DNA from: a virus
Taxonomy: Duplodnaviria > Heunggongvirae > Uroviricota > Caudoviricetes
Strand: one strand, 5' to 3'
Length of the DNA stretch: 64,000 nt
IMG/VR virus record: IMGVR_UViG_3300024270_000052
Both the position numbers and the translations under genes were made by a program. Shown in pieces: positions 9,250 through 26,789 of this stretch (its first letter is position 1; every line of letters starts with the position of its first letter). The notes under the pieces were generated by a model, which saw nothing but the letters and a program-made list of their open reading frames with translations, made no database searches and had not been told where the DNA came from.

Positions 9250-10182
9250 TTAAAACTTAAAAGTATCATTAGAAGCAGCCTGCGGAATCGCATTCTGACT
9301 AGCCTTATATTCTTCCTGACGCTGCTTAACAGTAGCCAGATAAGTTTCACGAGCAGCCATTGCTTCCTTCAATTCAGTAGCAGTAATACCACTATCATCA
9401 TCCCAAAGATAAGGCTCCTTGGCAGCACCAGTAATTACAAAATCACGATGAGAAGTAGGCGTTTCCTTAACGAGAGTATCACCAAACGCAGATTCCTCAG
9501 TAGTCTTTTTTACAATAGTTTCAGAAATCTAACGACCCCAAATCTTTGTAAACACAGGATTACTCTTAGAAGCATTCAAATCTTCAAAATAATTCATTGC
9601 ATTAGGATTAAGTGCAGTAAATTCAAAAGGAAGAAGTGCCTTACTAAAATCAAAAATATAACCCTTAACAACTACCTTTTCAGGCTGCTCCTTTTCAGGA
9701 TTTGCTTCAATACGTGCCGCACCCTCAATAAGCATATCGCATTCAAAAGTATTGCGAGTCTTTTCATCTTCTGCCAAACTATCAGTAAGATGTACAAAAC
9801 CGCCTTCATTGCGCTTAGCACTTACCAATTCATCTGTTCCATTTCTATTGGAATAAAATTCATTCAGTCCAAGAGCAGAATCAATTCTTACCTTACCTGC
9901 CTTATCAGGACCATCCTTCATATAAGTTCCAATAGCACCATCAATAATTGCTTTAAGAGTTGTATAGGTGGCATTCGGAGAACCCTTCTTTGTAGTTGCA
10001 GTTACATATGAAAAATGAACAGGAACAACATTAGTTACTGCGTTATCAGTTGCTACACTCAAAGTACCGGAAATAAATTCAGTTCCAGGATTCTTAGACT
10101 GCTTTCCAGAAACCTTAACTTCAAGAGCGTGTTCATAAATAATACCTTCAATATGTGTCTTATTAATAAGATTAGCTTTCAT
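9250..10182 (-). CDS. hypothetical protein (possible ssDNA-binding/recombination partner of the Sak4-like ATPase), one in-frame TAG
   Basis: Track ORF 9529..10182 continues through CTA at 9529-9531 to TAA at 9250-9252 (hand-verified codon by codon). Function inferred only from position next to the AAA_24 ATPase. Confidence 0.35.
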
Positions 10183-10213
10183 AATTTAATTTTCTCCTTA
10201 ATTAATACATTTT

Positions 10214-11765: not shown

Positions 11766-12755
11766 TTATTTGTTACCTCGTGTCATATTATAACCAAATG
11801 TTTCACTTTGATAATATTTAATCCAAAATTTTTCTTTTTCATTAAGTTGCGTTCTATCACATTCTTCAAGAATTTCAAAAGAGAAATTTTCTACTTTATC
11901 ACTTTTCATAGCAGTATATAATTTATTGTTTGAACCATCAATACCTAAACCAGCTTTAATATGTGTTTTAAATCTATCAGCAATATTAACTGATTGTCCT
12001 ATATAACACATTTGATTATTTAAATTAGTAATTTTATAAATACCAATTTTATTTTCTGTACCTATTAATCTGCCAATTAAATCACTTGTAGGTTTTTCAT
12101 AATAAGTTTTCCAAATAATTTTATTTAATGGTTCTTCATTTCTTAAATAAGGAATTATTGAACGCAATTTTTCAATTTCATTTTTATCTGTATCAGATAA
12201 TTGTATTTTATAAAATTCTTTTTTATTGTTTTCTTCTAAAGTTCTTTTATTCGCTTGAATAGCCGCATTTACAATAGAAGTCTAATCATTAATTTTTTGT
12301 TCCAAAAGAGATAAAGTATCCTAATGCTATTTTATAGTTTCTGCGGTTTGCTGCGCAAGTTCTTCCATTAAATTAAAATATTCTTCTTCACATTGCTTTT
12401 TATTCTTTTCAAATTCAATTCGCATATTTTCAGTAGATAATTCAAATTCTTTTTCCGCAATCTATTTACTTTGTTTATAAATAACTTCTCCAGCTTGCTT
12501 TGCCTATTCTTCAATTAACATAATACTTTTCTATGTCTCTTCTCTTTTGGATTCTAAAAATTTTATATTTCCTTTTAAATTTAAAGAATCTAATTTTAAT
12601 GATTGATTTTCATTTGTCAATATTTCATTTTCTTTTTGTAATTCTTCGTTTTTAAATGCTATTTCTTTATTATAAGTAATATTTTTTTTACCTTTTAATA
12701 AATAAAAACAAAGCATTCCAAATAGAAAACTTAAAATACATAAAAATATTGTCAT
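11766..12755 (-). CDS. T5orf172/GIY-YIG-like nuclease with N-terminal TM helix and coiled coil, seven in-frame TAG codons
   Basis: Track ORFs 12531..12755 (TM helix + coiled coil) and 11766..12167 (GIY-YIG-like 'IGIYKITNLNNQMCYIGQS...RFKTHIKAG') lie in one frame. The intervening 363 nt has no TAA/TGA, only CTA triplets (TAG x7). Confidence 0.5.
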
Positions 12756-20998: not shown

Positions 20999-21118
20999 TA
21001 AAAATAAAAATGGGGCTAAAGATTTTAATCTTTAGCCCTTATATTAAATTCCATAATTAATATCTGGAATGTAATCATTTAAATTTTCTTCTGTAACAAT
21101 ATTAGAATTTATATTCTA

Positions 21119-21448
21119 CTATTCTTCATTTACTCCCCAATCAATTTGTGGAACAGAATTACCATATATAGCATTTACTTCTGCCATAACAGATTCAAAC
21201 TTTATACCATCTTTAGAATTTTCTACTGTACTTTTTTTATAATAGAATACTTGACTTACTCCATAAGCGGTCCACGGAAAACTTATCATTGCCGCTAACC
21301 AAGGTAAAGAACCCATATAACCGCAAAAAATACAATAAAATGCTAATCCTATAAAAGACAAGGTCAATATCCATAATAATGCTGACTCTTGGATTAATAG
21401 CACTTTAGAAAATTCTTTTTTTTGATTTTTATTATTTTTCTTGCCCAT
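21119..21448 (-). CDS. small membrane protein, holin/lysis-accessory candidate
   Basis: 109 aa with two predicted TM helices. Its start overlaps the endolysin stop. Confidence 0.4.
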   Translation of the reverse strand: MGKKNNKNQKKEFSKVLLIQESALLWILTLSFIGLAFYCIFCGYMGSLPWLAAMISFPWTAYGVSQVFYYKKSTVENSKDGIKFESVMAEVNAIYGNSVPQIDWGVNEE

Positions 21449-22361
21449 GTAATCTATAAATTAAAGTAGCGGCTTCTTCTCTTGTTAAAAATTTACGATA
21501 CATACCATTACCTGTCATATCACCTTTAATAATACCATTTTCCTCACACCATTTTCGCGCTTCTTCAGACCAACTATTTGGTGGCTATTTAGCTAAATTA
21601 ACAAGATAATTATTCATCATTTTATTAAACTATTCTTGTGTTAAACTATTGGATTGATTTGGTAAAGTGACTGGTGTAGAGGGAATTGGGTCTGGTTGCG
21701 GTTGCTAAATTTCAGGTTGTACTGAATTTAAAATAGATTGTACATCATTTTTAACTGTTTCCATATTTTTTCCATATTTTGGAAACCAGTGCATTACATC
21801 TCCATGATTATTGCCCATTCCAAGAGCATGGGCATCTTTATGACAAAGAATTGTAGGAATTTTTTTCCCATTAACTTCAACATAACCATGCGGGTCTATA
21901 TTAAATGTTTTGCATAAATAAGCTGTTAATTCACAAGCTTCTTTATATACTGTATCAAAATATTCTTTATTTGTTAAATCATCTTCACAAATTTCAAATT
22001 GAATCCATCCATTATTACATGAACCATTTTCACCACTGCCGCAACCCCATGGACGATAAGTCCAAGGTAAAGTCTATAAAGTGGTAACACTTCCATCTGC
22101 TAATTTACCAATCCAAGCATTTAAACCAGACTAAATATCAATTTGATTATAACTATTATTATATTTATTAGTTCCAATCATTGTCATTAATTCTTCATAT
22201 TTAGGGTCAGTTTTACTTGGCTAAACATATCTTTTTAAAGTAGGATTATTTGCGCCAGTACTATGCCATAATACACCTAAAACAGTCATAGGTTTTGTCC
22301 CTTTATAGCAGGTACTATCTGTTAAAATACATTGTGTTGGGGTTTGATTTAAATATTTCAT
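21432..22361 (-). CDS. endolysin: N-acetylmuramoyl-L-alanine amidase (Amidase_2/PGRP-like) + C-terminal SLH domain, six in-frame TAG codons
   Basis: GGAGG RBS + ATG at 22361. 'VLWHSTGANNP', 'NGWIQFEICED', 'ILCHKDAHALGMGNNHGDVMHWFP' fit Amidase_2. C-terminus 'SWSEEARKWCEENGIIKGDMTGNGMYRKFLTREEAATLIYRL' fits the S-layer-homology motif. CTA (TAG) occurs six times in frame; TAA stop at 21432-21434. Confidence 0.6.
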
Positions 22362-22385
22362 ACCTATTTCCTCCTTCTCTTTTTT

Positions 22386-23063
22386 CTATACTTTTATTGG
22401 TGATGGGCTAGTAATTTCAGAAACTCCGATTCCAGGTTCTTTTAAGAGAGGTCTTAAAATTTCTCTTTCACCAGCCGCAAATCCTTTTTTATATCTATCA
22501 TGTGTTACTAGTTGATATTTTTTATCATAAAATATATCAAATAATCTTTCATGTGAAATTGTTTTTATATTAATAAATTTAATACAATCTAAAAATTCTT
22601 TGTAAGCTCCATTGATTCCTCTAGCAATTGCCCACGCCCAAAAACATTCCTAAAAAGCTCTGTTAGTTTTATCTAAATCTATATATGATATTATTTTATT
22701 TTTTATCTAATCATAATAAATAGATTTCATATACTTATATTCACATTCAAAAAAATAATTATTACCATATTTATTATAGCATTCAGTCCATACTTCTTTT
22801 ACTTCTTCTGGACTTGAACAATAATTACTACCAGGCCAAGTTTTACTAACAAAATCTTTAGTTGCTCTATAATATAATTTATTTGATTCGTTAGGAAAAT
22901 ATTTTTTTAAAAAATTAATACAATTTCCCCAACGTAATGTAAGCTAATATGAGCCGCAAGACAATCCCCAATCATAGCCGCAATTTCCAAAAGCCATTGA
23001 ACCTAAATTACCAGATTCAAACTATTTGATATATTTACCTATATAATCGGTCAATATAATCAT
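22386..23063 (-). CDS. lysozyme-like domain protein, at least four in-frame TAG codons; in frame with the downstream endolysin
   Basis: ATG at 23063. 'FESGNLGSMAFGNCGYDWGLSCGSY' resembles the lysozyme-like domain of ORF 1854..2684. The only candidate terminator is TAG at 22386-22388, and the frame is continuous with the endolysin ATG at 22361. Confidence 0.35.
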
Positions 23064-23107
23064 TCCTTTCTTGAGAAATAAAAAAGGAGGAATATAAAAT
23101 TCCTCCG

Positions 23108-25285: not shown

Positions 25286-26749
25286 TTACTGAGCAGCCTT
25301 ACCACCAAGATAACCAGAAATTACTGACTTAATATCAATACCGGTAGATTCGGTAAGAGCCTTAATAATCTGGTCACTGGTCTGCATTACATCACTAACA
25401 AGCTTTGTGGTTCCATCAGAGCCGTACATGGTAATGGAATCAACAGCAGAGAGAGGAGCTGCCGCATTCTTAACTACTTCGGGGAGAGCGTTAAGATACA
25501 TTTCCAGGATAGAAGCTTCACCCATCTTCTTCTGTGCTTCAGCCTTCTTATCAATACCTTCGGCTTCAGCAACACCGGTAGCACGAATACCTTCTGCTTC
25601 TGCCTTCTTAATAGCCGCAATACCTTCCGCTTCAGCCAGAGCAGCATACTTATCTGCTTCAGCCTTAGCTCTAATAGCTTCTGCTTCCTGAGCTGCCGCA
25701 TACTTATCTGCTTCAGCTTTCTGCTCTCTTTCATAGCGTTCAGCTTCTGCTTTTCTCTGACGAACTACAAGCTCAGCGGCTGCTTTCTGCTCTGCGGCAT
25801 ACTTATCAGCATCTGCCTGCTTACGAACAAGAGCATCAAGTTCATACTCACGCAGTTCAATTTCCTTCTGTCTAAGTTCTGCCTCACGTTCAGCCTTAGC
25901 GATTTCTGCGTCAGTAGAAGCAATATTCTTCAGCTTGCGCTGATTCTCTGCTTCAATCTCCATAGCAGCTTCAGCCTGCGCCTTCTGCGTATCTGCACTC
26001 TTCTTCAGTTCAGCCTGACGAATTTCAAGAGCGTTATTGCGGACGGCGATTTCTTCAGCGGCCGCAACCTTAGCGTCATTGGCGCTCTTGGCGTTTTCTG
26101 CCTCAGCAATAGCAATTTCTCTCTGTGCGTCAGACTTAGCAATAGAAGCCTTCTTACGAATTTGTTCTACGTTATCAATACCAAGATTATTGATAACATC
26201 ATTATCATCTACGAAATTCTGAACGTTAAATGAAATTAATTCAAGTCCAAGACGCTTAAGGTCGGGAACTGCGTTTTCCTATACCTTTTCAGAGAATGCC
26301 TTTCTATTACTTACCATATCAGTAAGTTTCATCTGGCCTACAATTTCTCGCACATTACCTTCAAGCAGACAAGAAATCTTTTCATTAATTACATTTTTCT
26401 TTACTCCAAGGAAGTTCTGGCAAGCAAGTTCCATCATTTCGGGGGTCTGACCAATACGAACATTTACATTGGAATCAACTCGTACATTAATGTATTCTGC
26501 TGTTGGAACCGCAGATGAAGTTTTTACATCAATCTGAATTACACCAAGTTCAAGCTTGTCAAGACGTTCAAAGAAAGGAATTTTAATGCCGGCTCTACCA
26601 ATAAGAATTCTTGGCTTCTTTCTCAAACCAGAAATTACATATGCCATATCCGGAGGAGCTTTCACATAACCACTCATAAGAATGAGAAGAAGAGCAACAA
26701 TTCCAATAACGGGGATAAGAAAAGATGCGGAAGTAATAAATTCTAACAT
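25286..26749 (-). CDS. flotillin-like SPFH/Band-7 protein, one in-frame TAG
   Basis: N-terminal TM + SPFH domain (track ORF 26279..26749). C-terminal flotillin-type Ala/Glu repeats 'KAEAEAERYEREQKAEADKYAAAQEAEAI' (25286..25963). The parts are joined in frame through CTA at 26279-26281; the intervening 315 nt has no stop. Confidence 0.65.
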
Positions 26750-26789
26750 TTTTTTCTCCTTATTTTATATAAATTTTTAAATGAACAAA

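Follow-up and report, generated by a model that had tools for sequence, protein, structure and literature searches.

How a phage lysis region that is broken up by stop codons should be read is the question raised by one locus in the Caudoviricetes record IMGVR_UViG_3300024270_000052. The window analysed here, the whole stretch of 64,000 nucleotides (nt), carries on its minus strand a lysozyme-like open reading frame (ORF) that ends in a TAG and is followed, in the same frame, by an amidase endolysin containing further TAGs. The preliminary description had allowed for two outcomes, a bifunctional lysozyme-amidase-S-layer homology (SLH) protein if TAG is read through and two separate products at low suppression, and had suggested that the choice between them might time lysis. 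Comparison with related loci indicates that the two ORFs are one conserved dual-enzyme endolysin gene. The region as a whole is probably the lysis cassette of a code-15 gut phage of Clostridia, made up of this single gene with an internal translation start, a holin-like gene and an amber gate.

The minus-strand frame from 23117 to 21432 runs for 562 codons without TAA or TGA, contains 11 in-frame TAGs and closes with TAA TAA (21434..21429). The window has a GC content of 31.6%, and a run of this length free of TAA and TGA is therefore excluded as a chance event. Read with the standard code, the region falls into pieces of at most 109 amino acids (aa). Within the endolysin coding sequence the TAGs are codons 14, 40, 119, 138, 226, 281, 311, 330, 453, 478 and 493. 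The upstream part (23063..22386) does end at a TAG (22388..22386) and does share its frame with ATG 22361, as had been noted, though it had been said to stop only there and four earlier TAGs, at codons 14, 40, 119 and 138, lie within it. Counted from ATG 22361 the amidase part has exactly the six TAGs ascribed to it, at codons 47, 77, 96, 219, 244 and 259 of that part. The read-through fusion is 543 aa long rather than 544, and the feature does not extend to 21119 as first given: the endolysin ends at the double TAA, while 21119 belongs to the first of a tandem TAG TAG in the next, overlapping gene. There are two candidates for the start of the endolysin, ATG 23063 and TTG 23054, of which the TTG gives an N-terminus (MTDYIGK) like that of the orthologues. 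The Shine-Dalgarno sequence (SD) at this first start is weak or ill-spaced, with AAAGGA abutting ATG 23063 and lying 9 nt before TTG 23054.

A codon-aware alignment was made of the window gene and 11 orthologues with DNA. The window TAGs at codons 40, 138, 281 and 330 face a Gln encoded by CAA or CAG, or another TAG, in 11 of 11 orthologues, and over all 36 TAG-containing columns Gln is the commonest partner (24% against a background of 3%). The positions of the TAGs are not conserved between lineages and their number varies from 0 to 11 per orthologous gene, a pattern that synonymous exchange between TAG, CAA and CAG would give. The holin-like ORF that overlaps the end of the endolysin gene reaches its conserved C-terminus, ...D(I/L)(N/D)YGI, only past its TAG TAG. 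At the level of sequence comparison TAG is shown to be a sense codon in this phage, read as Gln (genetic code 15), as the preliminary description had anticipated in treating it as read through.

When the fused 543-aa protein was used as a query, about 28 single proteins of 500-590 aa were found with 98-100% coverage and 53-97% identity, all with both PF21277 and PF01510. These matches come from other TAG-recoded phages and the junction was therefore inspected in DNA. In L003, L090, L091, L093, L101-L104 and L185-L187 it consists of uninterrupted sense codons with no stop of any kind, and the L090 lysin has zero TAG in 517 codons. A TAG in the linker is seen only in the window lineage (with L001 and L002) and in L092, that is in two of about 12 lineages, and the others often have CAA Gln there. 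Because of this distribution, and because Gln is often found at the equivalent site elsewhere, the junction TAG is on these alignments just one of eleven Gln codons, and a special meaning for it is not supported. The bifunctional protein foreseen in the case of read-through is upheld both by the fused homologues and by the sense junctions.

The two enzymes can be assigned to known folds. The N-terminal part matches PF21277 (T6SS_VgrG3-like_C) with 35 bits against a cut-off of 27 and the profile of its family matches the VgrG3C structure 4NOO with an E of 3e-5. For structural comparison an AlphaFold2 model of P0001, a protein 97% identical to the window protein, was used in place of the window sequence. 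The model has a mean predicted local distance difference test (pLDDT) score of 79.6 and shows three folded blocks parted by low-confidence linkers, one of which corresponds exactly to window residues 225-233. In Foldseek its N-terminal block matches 4NOO and 4NSO (E 6e-4, template modelling (TM) score 0.64). Glu16 and Asp31 are invariant and align with a Glu and an Asp of VgrG3C at an identical 15-residue spacing; this pair would correspond to the catalytic residues of VgrG3, which a literature search did not confirm. The fold is homologous to that of VgrG3C (4NOO, 4NSO; PF21277), an effector domain of the Vibrio cholerae type VI secretion system (T6SS). VgrG3C is the C-terminal toxin domain of a secretion-system spike, whereas in the phage endolysin the domain stands at the N-terminus as a catalytic module and no immunity protein is involved.

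The second enzyme matches Amidase_2 (PF01510) with 39.3 bits against a cut-off of 26 (E 9.7e-10), and PHROG endolysin families match it with E down to 1.7e-37. In Foldseek the corresponding block matches AmiE, AmiA, PlyL, PlyG and LytA, with E from 1.6e-6 to 1e-4 and TM scores of 0.55-0.74. His267, His408, His420 and Asp422 are invariant in 22-35 homologues and include candidate zinc ligands. Both descriptions made from the letters alone, lysozyme-like for the upstream ORF and Amidase_2 endolysin for the downstream one, are thus confirmed by these searches. Matches to the amidase domain at 34-37% identity were also seen in records of small single-stranded DNA Microviridae/gokushoviruses from pig and human faeces.

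At the C-terminus, 21 of the 29 aligned homologous sequences (41-68% identical to the window) match PF00395, the best with an E of 3.5e-8. The profile of the C-terminal family matches the Sap SLH structures 3PYW and 6BT4 with an E of about 9e-9 (8.9e-9 for 3PYW), and also other chains annotated as SLH-domain-containing, such as 8BZ2. Since both the family members and the family profile match SLH, the C-terminus is on this comparison a single, divergent motif of the SLH type, in which TREE takes the place of TRAE, following a conserved helix. The single C-terminal SLH motif read from the sequence beforehand is thus supported by the family profile and not by the SLH hidden Markov model run on the window sequence itself. 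There is one such motif per polypeptide, not three tandem motifs, and a few homologues have two. Three tandem SLH motifs form a pseudo-trimeric binding unit, and a single motif therefore implies oligomerisation if a three-pronged SLH unit is to be made. It would seem by analogy that the SLH-type motif of the window protein oligomerises and binds a wall polymer, the ligand expected of SLH domains being pyruvylated secondary cell-wall polymer. LysBT1 from a Brevibacillus thermoruber prophage, an amidase-SLH endolysin with a single SLH domain, forms trimers, and oligomerisation of SlpA is cited in the same study (PMC12285257). The layout is alike in the two proteins, an amidase and then a single C-terminal SLH-type motif that is TRAE-like, with TREE in the window (PMC12285257). 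The window motif differs in being too divergent for the Pfam SLH model alone, its module has the extra conserved helix, and the window protein has a second catalytic domain. The features of the locus are collected in Table 1.

Table 1. Coordinates of the lysis cassette and its elements in the 64,000-nt window.
Feature	Position	Strand	Basis or remark
Endolysin coding sequence	21432..23063	-	543 codons + TAA, second TAA after; 11 in-frame TAG (= Gln)
N-terminal catalytic domain, VgrG3C-like lysozyme/chitosanase fold (PF21277)	22419..23051	-	Hidden Markov model, family profile, Foldseek
Junction TAG, codon 226	22386..22388	-	In low-confidence interdomain linker; read as Gln; not conserved as TAG in orthologues
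Internal start: SD GAAGGAGG, 8-nt spacer, ATG (codon 235, MKY...)	22359..22377	-	Perfect SD; conserved in fusions
Amidase_2 (N-acetylmuramoyl-L-alanine amidase) catalytic domain	21699..22331	-	Pfam, PHROG, Foldseek
Wall-binding module: conserved helix (TQEQFNKMMNNYL) + one SLH-type motif (W..A..W....GII.GD......LTREE...LIYR)	21444..21650	-	Family profile
Holin-like gene, 134 codons	21044..21448	-	Overlaps endolysin end by 17 nt; tandem TAG TAG at 21121..21116
Upstream terminator-like hairpin (GGAGGAATTTTATATTCCTCC + T-run)	23086..23106	-	Directly after PIN/PhoH gene, 23 nt before endolysin ATG
Downstream terminator-like hairpin	21013..21038	-	Immediately after holin-like TAA (21044), not after TAGs; closes two-gene cassette

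The ATG at 22361, with which the amidase part begins, is preceded by a perfect SD (GAAGGAGG) that is spelled by the consecutive codons GAG-AAG-GAG. In this gene GAG accounts for three of 37 Glu codons and AAG for two of 49 Lys codons, so that three of these five rare codons stand consecutively at the SD. Of 14 fusions of the VgrG3C type, 11 have an in-frame ATG at the domain border with a GGAG or GAGG 4-12 nt ahead of it; two of the remainder have TTG or GTG there and one has no site. In L101 and L185 the ATG and its SD have shifted together by 3-4 codons (MSNKLKY, MLKMKY). A broader set was drawn from IMG/VR and GTDB genomes, comprising 82 distinct loci with this amidase; 46 of these are stand-alone, and in the other 36 the amidase continues in frame from an upstream stretch of at least 120 codons. 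An SD and ATG are found exactly 16 codons before the STCY motif in 33 of the 36 fusions, as they are at 39 of the 46 genuine stand-alone starts. Upstream of the amidase the 36 fusions have domains such as PF18013 (phage tail lysozyme), peptidase M15 and PF21277, and in many of them no TAG occurs. The linker peptides vary (KEEIG, TGGSLK, KGA, KKGGSS and others) while the nucleotide motif persists. By this comparison the in-frame ATG 22361 is a conserved internal start and not an accident of neighbouring genes, and we infer that it is used. Two isoforms are most likely made, the full-length enzyme and a 309-aa amidase-SLH short form, the latter being equivalent to the complete stand-alone endolysin of other phages.

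It might be argued that only the full-length fusion is made and that the internal SD and ATG are an unused relic of the fusion or a by-product of a Gly- and Glu-rich linker. Gly-Gly and Glu-Glu are common and natural in linkers and can give rise to GGAGG or GAGG even where no ribosome-binding site is selected for, GGA-GGN spelling GGAGG automatically, and the motif is missing from three of the 36 fusions and from L103. We consider this unlikely, since the motif persists across three families of N-terminal domain as frequently as at genuine starts, since start and SD have moved together in L101 and L185, and since the window SD is built of rare G-ending codons clustered exactly there. There is also experimental precedent for internal starts (PMC9430671, PMC12203907). 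In-frame internal translation starts are common among endolysins of Gram-positive phages (Pinto et al. survey, PMC9430671), and Ply2638A of the staphylococcal phage phi2638A is made as a full-length M23-amidase-SH3b protein and a short amidase-SH3b form (PMC12203907). The internal start proposed for the window gene would fit the same plan, with a first catalytic domain, a linker containing SD and ATG, an amidase and a wall-binding domain, and the predicted short form has the same layout. The differences are that a VgrG3C-like domain replaces M23 and an SLH-type motif replaces SH3b, that the isoforms are here predicted from sequence, and that amber has to be read through 11 times for the full-length form and six times for the short one.

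In many orthologues (L003, L090, L091, L092, L102, L103, L186 and L187) a second in-frame SD and start were seen at the beginning of the wall-binding module. A run of Glu codons, GAG GAG GAA GAA GAA, there contains GAGGAGG 8-9 nt before the ATG or GTG of 'MTQEKFN', and the site would yield a third isoform consisting of the binding domain only. In the window, Leu (TTA) stands at this position (21650..21640) and an SD is lacking, so that the second site is absent from it.

No other gene in the window is as heavily loaded with TAG as that of the endolysin, in keeping with its first description as heavily punctuated. TAG makes up 11 of the 23 Gln codons of this gene (TAG:CAA+CAG of 11:12, or 48%) and 40 of the 565 Gln codons elsewhere in the window (40:525; Fisher p=4.4e-7). 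The holin-like gene has two TAGs among six Gln codons, the tail-fibre genes and a GIY-YIG endonuclease gene have 2-6 TAGs, and the genes for gyrA, gyrB, ligase, RNase H, DnaB and NAPRTase have none. The GIY-YIG gene (11766-12755, minus strand) encodes an N-terminal hydrophobic segment, a long coiled-coil-like region and a C-terminal homing-endonuclease domain; all six of its TAGs lie within codons 75-158, and its relative in L003 (20268-21215) has five.

Amber codons so distributed would act as a gate on the timing of lysis, a hypothesis that fits the data and has already been published, together with the TAG pattern, for crAss-like, Agate and other recoded phages (Borges et al., bioRxiv 10.1101/2021.08.26.457843). 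The window shares with the code-15 gut phages whose lysis genes are preferentially recoded (Borges et al.; crAss-like, Lak and phAss-type, PMC10607447) the use of in-frame TAG for Gln, TAG-free replication genes, TAG-loaded lysis, tail and homing-endonuclease genes, a low GC content and a large genome. It differs from those published in that this 64-kb stretch has no suppressor tRNA or code-change module and in that the amber load of the lysin is extreme here (48%) and weak or absent in sister lineages.

The timing switch proposed in the preliminary description is thus plausible, and not new, in so far as it depends on recoding; the mechanism through separate products fails because of the early internal TAGs. 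Without suppression the two parts would stop at codon 14 of the upstream part and codon 47 of the amidase part, leaving nothing functional in place of the two products envisaged. If each TAG were read with efficiency p, the yields would scale as p^11 for the fusion, p^6 for the short form and p^4(1-p) for a lysozyme-only product, and for a time the fusion could be outweighed by separate products. As the junction TAG lacks conservation, there is no sign of selection for such products. A more elaborate scheme would have the amber codons and the internal start jointly shift the mix of isoforms as suppression rises, from nothing through mostly short products to the full-length enzyme, with lysozyme-only protein arising by termination at the junction TAG and with single SLH motifs forming hetero-trimers whose composition and lytic power are set by the state of the code switch. 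We regard this scheme as improbable.

The view that there are two separate genes, the lysozyme-like one ending at the junction TAG and the amidase-SLH one starting at ATG 22361, with the shared frame a one-in-three coincidence, does have arguments behind it, in that the amidase part owns a perfect SD and ATG and that stand-alone amidase-SLH-type endolysins beginning at the same Met exist. Moreover, L159 and L160 have a VgrG3C-like enzyme and an amidase as separate neighbouring genes, each with its own SH3 domain, and at intermediate suppression termination at the junction combined with internal initiation would be expected to give more of the separate products than of the fusion. It would, however, need the four upstream TAGs to be Gln and the fifth to be a stop, although the fifth is not set apart by its context (TAG-A, which two other sites share) and sits where orthologues frequently have Gln, without being conserved as TAG. 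With the junction continuous sense in eleven orthologues as well, we hold two genes to be very improbable. A special stop at the junction had been entertained as a candidate and was rejected, the TAG being unconserved and the orthologues having sense codons; L159 and L160 were likewise rejected as fused homologues, being two separate adjacent genes. In these Lachnospiraceae contigs from metagenome-assembled genomes (L159 813-2681, L160 1890-3746) the amidase and the VgrG3C-like enzyme are in the opposite order, with a near-identical SH3 domain at the end of each; this is the two-enzyme lysis set in unfused form.

A decaying lysis region with TAGs as ordinary nonsense mutations, to which the fragments of at most 46-109 aa from standard-code translation might point, was considered and rejected as effectively refuted, since TAG is the only interruption (no TAA, TGA or frameshift over 562 codons in a 32% GC genome), the protein sequence is conserved across each TAG with the TAGs aligned to Gln, and tail-fibre and other genes, as well as all relatives, show the same TAG pattern.

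For the gated, dual-enzyme cassette the following course of events would seem likely. Gene 1 (23063..21432) would encode a VgrG3C-like domain, a disordered linker, Amidase_2, a second linker and the helix with its single SLH-type motif, and the conserved SD and ATG (22377..22359) in the first linker would yield full-length and 309-aa amidase-SLH forms. Gene 2 (21448..21044), overlapping the end of gene 1, would supply a holin-like membrane protein. As both genes are amber-loaded (11 and 2), no product of functional length would be expected before the infected cell has come to suppress amber codons, through a suppressor tRNA-Gln(CUA) or manipulation of a release factor presumably encoded outside the window, and the lysis proteins would be kept off until late infection.

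Several observations weigh against this account, in addition to the ease with which Gly-Gly and Glu-Glu linkers generate SD-like sequences. The 72-residue C-terminus of the window taken alone has no Pfam SLH match, even at E<=10. The true N-terminus and the full-length yield are uncertain given the weak SD at the first start. The enrichment of TAG in the lysin is not significant in L003 and L101 (3:14 and 4:19; p=0.10 and 0.53) and one orthologue has zero TAGs; the heavy amber load is therefore lineage-specific and not required. Single TAGs are also present in PhoH, Band_7, RecJ-like and Sak4-like genes and recoding is therefore not strictly limited to late genes. Finally, tRNA scans found no suppressor tRNA in the 64-kb window, nor in 68 kb of six orthologous loci, and the decoding machinery is therefore assumed rather than seen. 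Some recoded phages have been reported without suppressor tRNA or code-change genes (PMC10607447).

The second gene of the cassette adjoins the lysin in all relatives. Its product begins with a basic N-terminus and ends in an acidic tail; between them lie a strong hydrophobic segment (about residues 22-44) and a second, weaker one. These features suggest a holin. The protein has no Pfam match and no PHROG match at E<=0.01, and only three weak matches to PHROGs of unknown function (E 0.04-0.3). T-rich hairpin tails comparable to the one upstream of the window gene precede the orthologous lysin genes. A sigma-70 promoter scan gave nothing above shuffled expectation and placed no promoter in the 23 nt that separate the upstream terminator from the start, which have no room for a promoter-like site. 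The cassette may therefore rely for its transcription on antitermination or on reading through the terminator.

With regard to the host, full-length matches to the amidase with its SLH-type motif are found in genomes of Flintibacter, Acutalibacter, Colidextribacter and other Oscillospiraceae and in Oscillospiraceae/Evtepia phages, and these point to Oscillospiraceae or other Clostridia as the likely host. The earlier suggestion of a Bacillus/Clostridia/Negativicutes-type envelope appears reasonable, since the closest full-length matches to the amidase with its wall-binding domain are in genomes and phages of Oscillospiraceae and other Clostridia. The gene order Band_7 - PIN/PhoH - lysin - small membrane protein - RNase H/gyrase - ligase is common to contigs of 157-332 kb, and the genome of this phage is probably larger than 150 kb. 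Among deposited phages a protein search found no fused lysin and no close relative (gyrA at most 35% identical), and DNA similarity was limited to short PhoH-type matches.

The region joins three known kinds of element, an amber-recoded lysis gene, a dual-catalytic endolysin with an internal start and an amidase with a single SLH-type binding motif; the type of arrangement is already known and no new mechanism is revealed. It is, however, a clean and well-bounded lysis cassette in which almost half of the endolysin Gln codons are amber, which makes it a convenient construct for testing recoding-gated lysis. A widespread family of Clostridia-phage amidases keeps its internal start whatever catalytic domain is fused upstream, and this start is relevant to the design of enzybiotics against Oscillospiraceae and other Clostridia. 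For annotation, gene callers using code 11 shred the endolysin gene and those using code 15 hide the short isoform.

Elsewhere in the window several genes have frames of 250-840 codons open on both strands; their GC content is about 40%, their Leu codon is CTT, and TTA, CTA and TCA are almost absent from them. Such pairs are 48761-51229 (-)/48779-51289 (+), 61180-62700 (-)/61135-62829 (+), 25286-26764 (-)/25328-26233 (+), 9250-10185 (-)/9250-10011 (+) and 38044-39054 (-)/38020-38817 (+). The gyrA and lysin genes have a GC content of 28-29% and use TTA, so that the phage has two sharply different classes of codon usage; the split could come from expression class, tRNA dependence or foreign origin. 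The minus-strand gene at 48761-51208 encodes an 815-aa protein that matches PF11978, the shoulder domain of the major vault protein (E 3.5e-20), as well as PF17795, a vault repeat, which is unusual for a phage, and that at 61180-62697, also on the minus strand and of the TTA-avoiding class, encodes a 505-aa protein with DUF2828 and DUF7788.

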